Shown here piece after piece: positions 5,752 to 8,420 of a stretch of 44,710 nucleotides of DNA; position 1 is the stretch's first letter; each line of letters starts with the position of its first letter. This DNA is from a virus: UHGV virus genome UHGV-0061377; one strand, written 5' to 3'. The notes beneath the pieces are model-generated. The model was given only the letters and a program-made list of their open reading frames with translations, did no database searches and was not told where the DNA came from. The position numbers and the translations under genes are program-made.

Positions 5752-5806
5752 ATTTAAAACTATGGTTGTTTTACCGTCAACAACAAAAGTTGTTTCATTG
5801 GTTGTT
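5752..5806 (-). promoter_or_regulatory. OL-like operator with candidate pL promoter
   Basis: Near-palindrome ATGGTTGTT-N8-AACAACAAA at 5762-5787, paralogous to the OR palindrome, plus an extra GGTTGTT half-site at 5800-5806. On the minus strand, TTGACG (5780-5775), 17-bp spacer, TTAAAT (5757-5752). Confidence 0.5.
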
Positions 5807-5920
5807 TTAGATATAACTGGTTGTATTTAGGATGGATTTATTTTGTGACTTGCATCGCATAGCGATAACTGAAGCGGGGGGTATGGTGGTTTTTTGAACG
5901 GTGTGTGATGAGGGGAGGCA

Positions 5921-5946
5921 AAAGAAAACCCGGCACGACGGCCGGG
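5921..5946 (-). terminator. Intrinsic terminator ending the cI-side operon
   Basis: GC-rich hairpin cccggc-acgacg-gccggg at 5929-5946, followed on the minus strand by TTTTCTTT. Lies directly after the stop of the membrane-protein gene. Confidence 0.6.
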
Positions 5947-5954
5947 GAGGGGGG

Positions 5955-6461
5955 TCATTTTAATCTATCAAGGAGTGACTCTCTTTCCTTCTTCTCTGAT
6001 TCTCTTCGGTTTAATAACGCTTTAAACTCTTGAAGCTCAACCATTATTTTATGAACGAATACACTGGTATAGAGAGAAATAAAGAGTAATCCACCTGAAA
6101 TTTTTAAGACCCTGAAGAGTAGGGCTTGATCATTTGTGCTTGCTATTAACCCCAAGATTACAAACAAAGTTGAAAATACATAGAAAGCTAATAATAAAAC
6201 CAATTTCAGTCTCTTGGATTTGACTATTGGCACTAATCGCCTAACCTCACTAGGGGTTAAAGACGAGTGGTCATTGGCCTCATTTGCCTTAAAAATGGCT
6301 TGTATACAATATGATAATGGCAATTGCATGAGTCCAACCACAGCCCACGGAGCAGTTAGGACAACACCCGGTGTAATATAGCCCAATGCTGACTTGAACA
6401 AAAAGTAACCAGCAAAATAGAAGACCAACATACCAATAAGGTGGATGATGTTCGATTTCAT
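5955..6461 (-). CDS. Small integral membrane protein (4 predicted TM helices, charged coiled-coil-like C-terminal tail); distal gene of the repressor-linked module
   Basis: 168 aa. Hydrophobic segments at roughly residues 5-22, 29-57, 85-108 and 119-136, then a tail rich in E/K/R (NRRESEKKERESLLDRLK). AT-rich codon usage. No family recognised. Confidence 0.65.
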   Translation of the reverse strand: MKSNIIHLIGMLVFYFAGYFLFKSALGYITPGVVLTAPWAVVGLMQLPLSYCIQAIFKANEANDHSSLTPSEVRRLVPIVKSKRLKLVLLLAFYVFSTLFVILGLIASTNDQALLFRVLKISGGLLFISLYTSVFVHKIMVELQEFKALLNRRESEKKERESLLDRLK

Positions 6462-6482
6462 TATCGCCCTCCTTTTGGTAGG

Positions 6483-7109
6483 TTATTTTGCAACCAATTC
6501 TCCGGCATCAAGTTTTGAGAACAGCCACTTATGCATTTTTAAGAATAAATCATTTTCATCAATAATGCCATTGTTATATTCAACGCTAATTTTTCCGGAT
6601 AATTTTATCTCTTTTCCCGTTATTTCCCCACCGCCTTGAAGTTTGATGCTAATATCATCCTCATCTAGATGTCGTAGTGAGGTAGCAATACTGTCTATAA
6701 CAGCTTGACCGCTATCATTTGTTTTTCTGAAGTATGTAATCTCGAGGCTTACTTGTAAATTGGCCTCATCTAATGAATCTTTAATGTTTATATCATTTGC
6801 CCAGTTATCGCCAAAAAATGCTTTTAGTAGCGCACCTCCTTTCCCTATTGGGCGGTATTTTATTGTCTTCACCGAACCATTTGAAAAGGAGGGTGTTTGG
6901 TTCTCTGAATTTTTAACTTCTGAAGTAATGGGTAATCCACCAATTTTTATGCTCTTGGCTGGTGCTTTCTCCATTTTTTTCATCGTTTCTTCGGATGGCT
7001 TATCTTGAAGCATTAACACAGATTCTTTTTCATCTGTGAATGTATTAATTAGCCAATTCAAATGCGCCTCAAGCTCCCTTGCTCGAAGCGATGTGGATTG
7101 AACGATCAT
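6483..7109 (-). CDS. Hypothetical soluble protein; middle gene of the repressor-linked module
   Basis: 208-aa ORF, AT-rich, rich in K/N/I/E/D. No obvious Shine-Dalgarno. The reading frame stays open upstream to the poly-A tract of the preceding ORF. Confidence 0.55.
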   Translation of the reverse strand: MIVQSTSLRARELEAHLNWLINTFTDEKESVLMLQDKPSEETMKKMEKAPAKSIKIGGLPITSEVKNSENQTPSFSNGSVKTIKYRPIGKGGALLKAFFGDNWANDINIKDSLDEANLQVSLEITYFRKTNDSGQAVIDSIATSLRHLDEDDISIKLQGGGEITGKEIKLSGKISVEYNNGIIDENDLFLKMHKWLFSKLDAGELVAK

Positions 7110-7147
7110 GACATGGTTGTTTAGTACACCAAAATATAAAATTGAAT

Positions 7148-7504
7148 CTACAAACTCTCTTTTTTGTCACTACGTTTATCTCCATCAATAATTATATCAT
7201 TAGACGTGATGGAGTTAATGTCATAAAATTTAACATTATCACTAAGCTCTAATAGAGACTGGCTTTTGTCTTTTTCAAATAAAACCAGTTGCCCAAAAAG
7301 TATAGTTTTGTATGTGTCGCTTTTATTTAAGAAACGATACCCCGAATTTTCATCTGAAGGTGTTATTTTTTCTTGTCTACTAAGTACTTTTTCTGCAACG
7401 CCGCCCTCACCTATAATACTAAGTAGTATGTTTTGTAATGATGATTTGCTGTGTGGGATTACTGCTTTTTTATAATGAACGACTTTTTGTCTGTTATCTT
7501 TCAT
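7148..7504 (-). CDS. Hypothetical protein; first gene downstream of cI in the module (possibly the N-terminal part of a frameshifted longer gene)
   Basis: 118-aa ORF, AT-rich. Ends 6 codons after an A6 tract (plus-strand T6 at 7160-7165). Confidence 0.5.
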   Translation of the reverse strand: MKDNRQKVVHYKKAVIPHSKSSLQNILLSIIGEGGVAEKVLSRQEKITPSDENSGYRFLNKSDTYKTILFGQLVLFEKDKSQSLLELSDNVKFYDINSITSNDIIIDGDKRSDKKESL

Positions 7505-7561
7505 TGCTATAGTCCAACTAGTATTGAATAAATAAACACAGTAAAGACATAAAAATTTCTT

Positions 7562-7591
7562 ATAGCTACCGATAACGTAATCGGTAGCTAT
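7562..7591. promoter_or_regulatory. Perfect 12-bp-stem hairpin between cI and the downstream module
   Basis: atagctaccgat-aacgta-atcggtagctat. On the minus-strand transcript it is followed by AAGAAAUUUUU. Candidate terminator, attenuator or protein-binding site. Confidence 0.5.
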
Positions 7592-7626
7592 TACAAATCA
7601 ACCAAAGGTAATTCTTTACATACTAC

Positions 7627-8316
7627 CTACCCATGCTTCCTGTAGGTCTGCGGCATGCTCCCAATAACTTTCCCGAAGATAAACACCCGGTTCATCTCGT
7701 CTTTCTCAATTGGGTCCCACGGCGAGTAGCTCTTGTTATCAGAGATAACCAGTAGCTTATCCTTCATCATTTGCAGGCGCTTTACATGGGCTGTGTCGTC
7801 GTACAGAAACGCATAGATACCATCACCGTCGAAAGATTTAACTGTGATATCAACGAACAGCAGATCACCTGGTTCGATCGTTCCTGACATGCTGTCACCA
7901 CGCACGTTAATGATGCGGATATTTTCCGCCTTCCTACCATCGAACATGTGACGAGCATCGTCAAACGAGTACTCAACCGAGCGTAGAACTTCTACAAACT
8001 CACGGTTGATGACTCCCGGCCCAGCACTGACTTCTATATCAAGAACGTCAATCTTAAAGTATTTGGAATGGCTGACAGTTGATAGTATTGGTTGCACTGT
8101 ACTGTCTGACATATTTCCAACGCCAGAAGATAACCATTCTGCGCGCACACCCAAAGCGTTCGCGATCTCCACGATTTTAGTTGTTTGGTTAGCTTTCCCT
8201 GTTTCGATTTTCTGAATAGCAGCTTGGCTAACCCCGACCAAATCCCCAAGCGCCTTTTGTGTAAGGCCTCGCGCTAATCTGGCTTCTTTAAGTCTTTCTG
8301 AGAGTGTTGTTTTCAT
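7627..8316 (-). CDS. cI: CI-type prophage repressor (N-terminal HTH_XRE, C-terminal S24 LexA-like autopeptidase)
   Basis: Trimmed to the internal ATG (MKTTLSERLKEARLARGLTQKALG...). HTH at the N-terminus; S24 Ser/Lys dyad context (VRGDSMSGTIEPGDLL ... HVKRL). Divergent from the cro-like gene across the operator. Confidence 0.9.
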   Translation of the reverse strand: MKTTLSERLKEARLARGLTQKALGDLVGVSQAAIQKIETGKANQTTKIVEIANALGVRAEWLSSGVGNMSDSTVQPILSTVSHSKYFKIDVLDIEVSAGPGVINREFVEVLRSVEYSFDDARHMFDGRKAENIRIINVRGDSMSGTIEPGDLLFVDITVKSFDGDGIYAFLYDDTAHVKRLQMMKDKLLVISDNKSYSPWDPIEKDEMNRVFIFGKVIGSMPQTYRKHG

Positions 8317-8357
8317 AGTCCAAATGTACAACCAAGGTTTTATTCCATCAAACGAAA

Positions 8358-8393
8358 ATGGTTGTTGACTAAAAACAACCATAGTTTTAATCT
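8358..8393 (+). promoter_or_regulatory. OR operator palindrome overlapping candidate pR
   Basis: Perfect palindrome ATGGTTGTT-GACTAAA-AACAACCAT (8358-8382). TTGACT (8365-8370), 17-bp spacer, TAATCT (8388-8393). Further GGTTGTT/AACAACC half-sites at about 8327 and 8414. GGAGG precedes the cro ATG. Confidence 0.6.
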
Positions 8394-8420
8394 TGATTCA
8401 AATTAACCACGGAGGTTGTT

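Follow-up and report, generated by a model that had tools for sequence, protein, structure and literature searches.

A probable 434-like operator set in the immunity region of a widespread lambdoid Escherichia coli prophage

The operators annotated in phage 434 are 14 bp long (ACAA-N6-TTGT), and the distances between them are 23 bp for OR3-OR2, 22 bp for OR2-OR1, 23 bp for oL1-oL2 and 31 bp for oL2-oL3. Phage lambda has 17-bp operators of the TATCACCGC type, which differ from the 14-16 bp ACAAC-type sites described below. In another switch, the PaaR2/YdaS/YdaT system of CP-933P from E. coli O157:H7, four equally spaced inverted repeats were footprinted by both proteins in a 97-bp intergenic region and the repressor mRNA was shown to be leaderless (PMC8630535). 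Here we describe the immunity region of the virus genome UHGV-0061377, whose 44,710 nucleotides (the window hereafter) form a lambdoid E. coli prophage that carries, from left to right, exo-bet-gam-kil on the minus strand, an intergenic region (5680-5950), a cargo module, the repressor gene cI, cro and the replication genes. Repeats of GGTTGTT in its left (OL) and right (OR) operator regions are very likely, as judged from sequence, the repressor-binding sites of a widespread lambda-like prophage. We consider it quite probable that they form, as a whole, the 434-like operator set of a lambdoid immunity module read by both cI and Cro. A first-pass annotation had proposed operators of a non-lambda immunity specificity at OL and OR; this main claim holds, and the map of the operators is corrected here.

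The correction concerns the unit that is recognised. When all core pairings and spacers were scanned across the region, the tail-to-tail arrangement ACAAC-N4-GTTGT gave six sites with 0-2 mismatches and a constant spacer, starting at 5756, 5780, 8328, 8352, 8375 and 8406. Head-to-head pairing gave a single site in each region, the core spacer being 9 bp in OR and 10 bp in OL; the half-site spacing is thus not the same in each head-to-head copy, and relatives with the same recognition helix do not keep the head-to-head unit. Recognition most likely involves a 14-16 bp site, (A/T)ACAAC-N4-GTTGT(T/A), and not the 25-bp palindrome previously taken for the unit. All strings quoted in the first-pass annotation are present at their coordinates, including the half-sites GGTTGTT at 5800-5806 and 8414-8420 and TACAACC (GGTTGTA on the minus strand) at 8327-8333. 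The "perfect 25-bp palindrome" at 8358-8382 (ATGGTTGTTGACTAAAAACAACCAT) does possess perfectly complementary 9-bp arms, ATGGTTGTT-GACTAAA-AACAACCAT, but its 7-bp centre is not palindromic, so that it is an inverted repeat. In the same way, the OL repeat at 5762-5787 (ATGGTTGTT-TTACCGTC-AACAACAAA) exists, but its arms are complementary at 7/9 positions and its spacer is 8 bp instead of 7. These 25/26-bp inverted repeats appear to be by-products, made of the facing halves of neighbouring operators across each -35 box; the one in OR takes in OR2 from its centre rightwards, the -35 box of the promoter PR, and OR1 up to and including its centre. Operator starts are 24 bp apart for OR3-OR2, 23 bp for OR2-OR1, 24 bp for OL1-OL2 and 31 bp for OL2-OL3, and subtracting 14 bp from the OR2-OR1 and OL1-OL2 distances gives the 9- and 10-bp gaps of the head-to-head repeats.

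The proteins expected to read these sites are encoded on both sides of OR. The cI gene (7627-8316, minus strand, ATG at 8316) encodes a 229-aa protein that matches N-terminal HTH_3 and Peptidase_S24 in Pfam and has the recognition helix SQAAIQK. Its LexA-like S24 domain contains an AG site, the Ser of GDSM and the Lys of VKRL, as read off the translation, and these autocleavage residues imply SOS induction. The cro gene (8421-8651, plus strand) is divergent from cI across a 104-bp intergenic region and encodes a 76-aa protein of the YdaS/PF15943 type with helix SQQAVYKW; it was also matched by Pfam P22_Cro, and scored 62 bits with PF15943 and 21.5 bits, under the cut-off, with HTH_3. Pfam and gene layout together show an S24 repressor with an N-terminal helix-turn-helix (HTH), divergent from a small Cro-type gene. 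Among solved structures, the cI N-terminal domain is closest to the DNA-binding domain of the 434 repressor (1per/2or1, E 4.5e-9), with an ungapped alignment over residues 5-68 (64 residues) in which Gln31 corresponds to 434 Gln28 and Gln20 to Gln17.

Between cI and cro, four copies of the motif cover the divergent promoters (8328-8419). OR3 (ACAACCAAGGTTTT, extended TACAACCAAGGTTTTA) occupies 8328-8341, with its centre about -18.5 from the predicted start of the repressor maintenance promoter (PRM). OR2 (ACGAAAATGGTTGT, 8352-8365) would be centred about -42 from both predicted starts, and OR1 (ACAACCATAGTTTT, 8375-8388), which starts 23 bp further, lies in the PR spacer. A fourth site, O4 (ACCACGGAGGTTGT, 8406-8419), is centred on the Shine-Dalgarno GGAG of cro and stops 1 nt short of the cro ATG. 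Most relatives retain it at 27-31 bp from OR1, and an analogous fourth site, AATACC-AATA-GGAATT, was found at the equivalent place in the Perceval/BTP1 group of phages.

Promoters were assigned by -35 matches, 17-bp spacing and conservation, and the early left promoter (pL), PR and PRM each have a 17-bp spacer. The hexamers TTGACT (8365-8370, plus strand; TTGAnT in relatives), between OR2 and OR1, and TTGACG (5775-5780, minus strand), between OL1 and OL2, had been noticed before as embedded -35 elements and are supported here as those of PR and pL. For PR, the candidate -10 is TAATCT (8388-8393, plus strand), 17 bp after the -35, of which T-A-N3-T is kept in relatives. For PRM, the candidates are TTGATG as -35 (8346-8351, minus strand), with a plus-strand CAA that is invariant in 19 relatives, and TACATT as -10 (8323-8328, minus strand), with T-A-N2-T-T kept. 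The predicted starts would fall at about 8400 for PR, 8316 for PRM and 5745 for pL, and would place the centres of OR1/OL1 at about -18 and those of OR2/OL2 at about -42 of PR/pL. The candidate PRM -10 ends 6 nt before the cI ATG, and the cI mRNA is therefore probably leaderless.

A second set of the motif was found at the early left promoter, beyond cI and the cargo, where OL1 and OL2 (5756-5793) flank TTGACG, whose complement GTCAAC is kept in relatives. OL1 (AAAACTATGGTTGT, 5756-5769) is identical to the reverse complement of OR1; placed in the pL spacer, it overlaps the candidate pL -10 TTAAAT (5752-5757, minus strand; or TAAATG with an 18-bp spacer), which matches in position the TATTAT of the related heteroimmune phage Perceval. 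The paralogy claimed for OL and OR is borne out by a 19-bp identity, TTAAAACTATGGTTGTTTT, between 5754-5772 and the reverse complement of 8372-8390. OL2 (ACAACAAAAGTTGT, 5780-5793), 24 bp from OL1 start to start, is a perfect ACAAC-N4-GTTGT match that extends to AACAAC-AAAA-GTTGTT at 5779-5794; as an isolated-site oligonucleotide of the 14-16 bp class it would read AACAACAAAAGTTGTT. Further right, the orphan half-site GGTTGTT at 5800-5806 (plus strand) has no acceptable left half, is not strictly conserved in homoimmune phages (GGTTTTT in PhiR47_2) and is of uncertain role. A full palindromic OL3 was looked for, and the search found only a conserved right half at +31, within the weak candidate ATATAACTGGTTGT (5811-5824). 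OL3 is exactly 31 bp away from OL2, start to start, in the window, in the Klebsiella phage ST101-KPC2phi6.1 (phi6.1) and in the loci L006, L007 and L033, which is the 434 oL2-oL3 distance.

Two other elements resemble operators. The GGTTGTT at 7115 was considered and rejected: it has no left half, lies inside a cargo gene and is identical in Perceval. Right of OL, the palindrome ATCGCATAGCGAT (5854-5866) is kept in homoimmune phages and also in Perceval (TATCGCATAGCGATA), which implies that it is not an immunity operator.

The motif was found to follow the recognition helix among relatives. Scanning of the cI N-terminal domain against one genome per species gave 48 loci, and in all 30 loci with helix (V/I/L)SQAAIQKIE, ACAAC-N4-GTTGT occurs at a distance of 15-24 bp from the cI ATG. 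The N-terminal domains of these 30 are 47-75% identical and come from at least 15 genera across Enterobacterales, including Kosakonia, Enterobacter, Klebsiella, Pectobacterium, Brenneria, Pantoea, Erwinia, Providencia, Serratia, Morganella, Photorhabdus and Xenorhabdus. Where cro is adjacent, further sites were present at offsets of about 39, 62 and 92. In an alignment of 19 sequences, the outer 5+5 positions hold 1.92 bits in OR3, 1.57 in OR2 and 1.87 in OR1, compared with 0.73, 1.23 and 1.39 bits for the respective centres and 0.6-1.05 bits for the spacers; outside the operators, conserved columns are found in the PRM -35 (TTG), the PR -35 (TTGAnT) and the PR -10 (T-A-N3-T). Within the 135 bp upstream of cI, the density of sites exceeds that in the remainder of the loci 32-fold. 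Most matches elsewhere are OL-type sites downstream of cI, with OL2/OL1 pairs 24 bp apart in five loci, and a recurring match in Pectobacterium coding regions falls where the conserved residues QTTKIV are encoded.

Phi6.1, whose domain is 62% identical and whose helix is the same, has the same OR and OL sites and none else in 7.2 kb; its OL1/OL2 pair was also observed in L006, L007, L028, L033 and L035. In this phage and in three homoimmune coliphages, sites with at most one mismatch are confined to OR and OL. Finally, the Pectobacterium relatives possess a lone perfect ACAACCTAGGTTGT with no head-to-head partner. These lone sites discriminate most clearly between the pairing models.

A natural swap gives further support. 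Perceval and the window share, at about 97% identity, the left flank, the cargo and the C-terminal half of cI, whereas the cI N-terminal domain and cro differ. The whole of OR is replaced, together with a patch of about 90 bp at OL (window 5745-5843) that is the sole part of the OL neighbourhood to be exchanged, its flanks being about 97% identical, and the replacements carry AATAsC-N4-GCTATT. The motif thus travels with DNA-binding specificity, which supports its assignment to OL and OR operators of a non-lambda immunity, as had been claimed. In the same way, AATAsC-N4-GCTATT was found at equivalent positions in Perceval, PhiR30_1, BTP1, L036 and L039, where the cI helix is AQPTIWR and the Cro helix QPTVWRW. 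ACAAC sites are absent from the relatives whose helix is AQPTIWR or SQPSIWK, which have the Perceval-type motif instead, and the Cro helix co-varies likewise, (S/T)QQAVYKW versus QPTVWRW. Perceval, PhiR30_1, BTP1 and L036-L039 differ from the window in both helix and motif at the same places.

The statistics of the motif depend on how it is defined. Exact GGTTGTT is not enriched across the window (10 copies versus 7.1 expected), and its counts were replaced by statistics on cores and paired sites. The GTTGT/ACAAC cores number 92 in the window, of which nine lie within the 205 bp of OL and OR against 0.42 expected, an enrichment of about 20-fold (Poisson P ~8e-10). Seven matches to ACAAC-N4-GTTGT with at most one mismatch were counted against 1.28 expected (0/100 shuffles reach 7), five of them in OL/OR. 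On the contrary, a 9-bp-arm palindrome by itself proves little, as the window contains eight distinct perfect inverted repeats of this kind against 2.6 in shuffles. The motif and spacing search suggested at first pass was thus borne out for the clustering of cores in OL and OR, but not for the exact heptamer, and constant spacing was found only tail-to-tail.

Several observations weigh against the operator set as drawn here. OR2 has two mismatches, with a poor left half, ACGAA, that is itself conserved, and of OL3 the right half only is conserved. The OR1 and OR2 centres are semi-conserved (YATR) and the half-site may be 7 bp instead of 5; owing to these centres, the 9-bp arms described at first pass look conserved in several relatives. 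O4 is absent or degenerate in L020, L022, L024 and L025, and its conservation elsewhere could partly reflect the Shine-Dalgarno that it contains. A consensus promoter scan called none of PR, pL and PRM, and the -10 candidates of PR (TAATCT) and pL (TTAAAT) are weak consensus matches that fall below the scanner threshold. Moreover, three of the four residues of the 434 recognition helix that we take to contact bases or to be adjacent to such contacts are not conserved here (Q29A, S30A, Q33K), so that the outer ACAA shared with 434 is not explained residue by residue. Binding, promoter positions, occupancy order, PRM activation and the functions of O4 and OL3 are all predicted from sequence alone.

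Other readings of the repeats were weighed against this evidence. The one adopted in the first-pass annotation, in which a dimer binds head-to-head ATGGTTGTT-N7/8-AACAACNAN centred on the -35 of PR and pL and the other GGTTGTT copies are auxiliary, draws on the perfect 9-bp arms of the OR repeat, on its sensible position over a -35 box and on equivalent 9-mers that are still 8-9/9 complementary in several relatives. That complementarity is however automatic for near-palindromic operators with a YATR centre, and in phi6.1 the arms are 6/9 complementary with the tail-to-tail sites intact. The spacer is moreover inconsistent, 7 bp in OR and 8 bp in OL, with a 1-bp difference also in L027, and half-site centres 14-15 bp apart do not suit a 434-type HTH dimer. 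The half-site with the strongest conservation, the left half of OR3, would be without a partner, and the Pectobacterium relatives carry their tail-to-tail sites alone. We regard the head-to-head dimer as improbable. A hairpin, such as an intrinsic terminator, is extremely improbable as an explanation of the 25-bp repeat: a scanner does flag it as terminator-like on both strands, with a 9-bp stem followed by a T-rich tail, but the stem has 3 G-C pairs only and lies upstream of both predicted starts, so that neither promoter would transcribe it. In addition, the motif recurs as non-hairpin sites in OL and OR3, and relatives keep the half-sites and not the stem pairing.

It may also be asked whether the sites are real but read by one regulator only, for example Cro/YdaS, or by a YdaT/cII-like factor, and not by cI. 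Co-variation with the motif is the same for the Cro helix as for the cI helix, and on this point the sequence cannot separate the two proteins; YdaT-type proteins also bind inverted repeats (PMC9986795). Nevertheless, the published YdaT site, TTGATT-N6-AATCAA, is different, and the window has lost most of its ydaT gene through a 458-bp deletion with all sites intact. In Pectobacterium, the site lies directly upstream of the cI homologue where an adjacent cro and OR2/OR1 are missing, and the 434-like cI domain goes with 434-like sites. A reader other than cI is thus a slender prospect, slightly less probable than the head-to-head dimer and well above the hairpin.

Under the preferred reading of a 434-like operator set, cI, with its 434-like HTH_3 and LexA-like S24 domains, and the YdaS-type Cro would both read the two-fold symmetric (A/T)ACAAC-N4-GTTGT(T/A). 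OR would have a lambda-like geometry, with OR1 in the PR spacer, OR2 between back-to-back -35 boxes and OR3 in the PRM spacer. Repressor at the O1 and O2 sites would block PR and pL, and the one bound at OR2, about -42 of PRM, could activate PRM as in the lambda geometry. RecA-stimulated autocleavage of cI would relieve repression, after which these sites would be bound by Cro. O4, at about +12 of the PR start, may act as a roadblock when bound by repressor or Cro, or serve a Cro autoregulation linked to the ribosome-binding site of cro. The centres of OR1 and OR2 read YATR among relatives, whereas those of OR3 vary and contain more G/C. A/T-rich operator centres of 434 raise affinity via indirect readout (summarised in PMC3317979), and by analogy it is plausible that operator centres tune occupancy order here.

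The genes around the switch show additional features. OL and OR bracket cI and the cargo as they bracket rex-cI in lambda, in agreement with the earlier proposal, and the cargo module (5955-7504, minus strand) occupies the slot equivalent to rexAB. It comprises a 168-aa membrane protein (5955-6461, minus strand) and a larger gene that is split by a 1-nt frameshift into 6483-7109 (208 aa) and 7148-7504 (118 aa), both on the minus strand. In Perceval the larger gene is one open reading frame of 340 aa, to which the window copy is 99.9% identical with one gap (a 1-nt indel). PHROGs exist for the whole 340-aa protein and for each half, which indicates that the split form recurs among phage genomes. 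The cargo proteins had no match in Pfam or PADLOC. A terminator-like hairpin (5929-5946, minus strand) ends the module, and a perfect inverted repeat with 12-bp arms, ATAGCTACCGAT-AACGTA-ATCGGTAGCTAT (7562-7591), is found 36 bp past the stop codon of cI, where it may serve as the cI terminator or insulate cI from the cargo. Between pL and kil (5510-5750), no gene for an N-like antiterminator was observed, and the leader runs for about 240 nt to the first plausible open reading frame. Rfam gave no match over the entire window at the gathering threshold; there is hence no put/nut-type RNA of a known family downstream of pL, and a structured RNA does not explain the repeats.

On the other side of cro, comparison with the homoimmune phage PhiR34_1 revealed a deletion of about 458 bp between repeats of about 11 bp (window 8721-9818, junction at about 8867-8877). 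It takes out most of the YdaT-type (cII-equivalent, PF06254) gene and joins the 5' end of ydaT in frame to the replication gene O (PF04492 from residue 77). The prophage may be unable to establish lysogeny normally. Directly after the replication gene P, a 1302-aa inverse autotransporter of the intimin/invasin family is encoded (10766-14674, plus strand), with IAT_beta and Big_1/Invasin_D3 repeats. Such a large cargo is unusual at the nin-region position; within the protein, about 100 aa are repeated almost exactly.

The immunity type is common. The cI-OR-cro block is 96-98% identical in six recent coliphage isolates (PhiR5_1, PhiR34_1, PhiR26_1, PhiR47_2, Turner and IdasGreatGrand), in which the cargo between OL and cI varies (HipA/HipD, GevT/GevA, a lipoprotein) or is missing. 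The immunity block (window 8080-8660) was found in 1524 of 5426 complete E. coli genomes (28%), with up to four copies per genome, which implies that several prophages of the same immunity coexist in some strains. It occurs in strains of sequence type 131 (ST131) and in Shiga toxin-producing E. coli (STEC), as well as in recent temperate coliphages with differing defence cargo. A correct operator map makes the switch directly testable with footprint probes, reporter fusions and virulent mutants, and makes immunity groups predictable from sequence. In addition, the relatives offer a natural series on how a 434-like fold reads ACAAC half-sites using a different recognition helix.

A close counterpart outside phage switches is found in Pectobacterium and Samsonia, where the homologous chromosomal loci (L008-L018 and L021) presumably encode RdgA; a homologue in the Erwinia phage phiEt88 is annotated rdgA. 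RdgA is a regulator of pectin lyase and bacteriocin that is induced by DNA damage. The N-terminal domain of the putative Pectobacterium RdgA is 68-75% identical to that of the window cI, the helix SQAAIQKIE is identical and the perfect site lies 15 bp from the start; it differs in that an adjacent cro is missing and a second site lies at a distance of about 105 bp. The searchable literature yielded no published operator for RdgA. The ACAA...TTGT code common to 434 and, apparently, to the chromosomal Pectobacterium RdgA raises the possibility of cross-talk. It is only a tentative proposal, doubtful when taken jointly, that O4 is a functional and conserved part of the switch in two specificity groups and that this immunity type cross-talks with 434-type phages or host SOS-linked regulons.

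Comparison with lambdoid operator sets, which had been proposed as a check, identified operators that are non-lambda and 434-like, yet not those of imm434. The DNA-binding domain is homologous to that of 434 and the 14-bp operators are of the ACAA/TTGT type with a variable centre, which is presumably not contacted, as in 434. The distances between operators nearly agree as well, at 24/23 and 24/31 bp here and 23/22 and 23/31 bp in 434. At the 434 invariant positions OL2 matches perfectly, the other sites miss by one and the weak OL3 by two; moreover, cI and Cro have similar recognition helices in both systems. Differences were nevertheless observed. The 434 recognition helix is TQQSIEQ and that of the window SQAAIQK, and position 5 is a conserved C here. 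The 434 Cro is an all-alpha HTH_3 protein, unlike the YdaS/PF15943 Cro of the window. OR1 of 434 lies downstream of the -10 and OR2 in the spacer, whereas the register here is lambda-like, and 434 cI has a Shine-Dalgarno leader, whereas cI here is apparently leaderless. Finally, the window has an extra site over the cro ribosome-binding site, no N/nut, and kil after pL. Among the matches listed, 13 phage records carry the 434 domain, with no overlap with the six that carry the window domain, and no classical phage has the latter. On its sequence features, this appears to be a 434-like operator system, but not imm434.

With lambda the region shares the divergent cI and cro with three operators between them, OR2 at about -42 of PRM and OR3 in the PRM spacer, an apparently leaderless cI with an S24 autocleavage domain, a second operator set at pL and accessory genes (rexAB in lambda) between cI and OL. 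It differs by a cI DNA-binding domain that belongs to HTH_3 and not to the lambda-repressor family and by four sites at OR instead of three. With CP-933P it shares, through intact homoimmune phages with the same gene set, a repressor divergent from ydaS-ydaT (the "cII" of PhiR34_1 is PF06254 YdaT). CP-933P has however 18-bp repeats with half-site consensus GTTTAGTAA and a PaaR2 gene that heads a toxin-antitoxin operon, and ydaT is deleted in the window. The e14 repressor YmfK of K-12 was considered as a possible characterised homoimmune prophage and rejected, as protein and motif are both different. Searches for the operator strings in a phage context, for the PhiR phages and for lambdoid immunity groups returned no description of this specificity in the searchable literature. 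The immunity region of UHGV-0061377 is an uncharacterised and very common member of a well-known type of switch, a variation on the lambda/434 paradigm and not a new mechanism.

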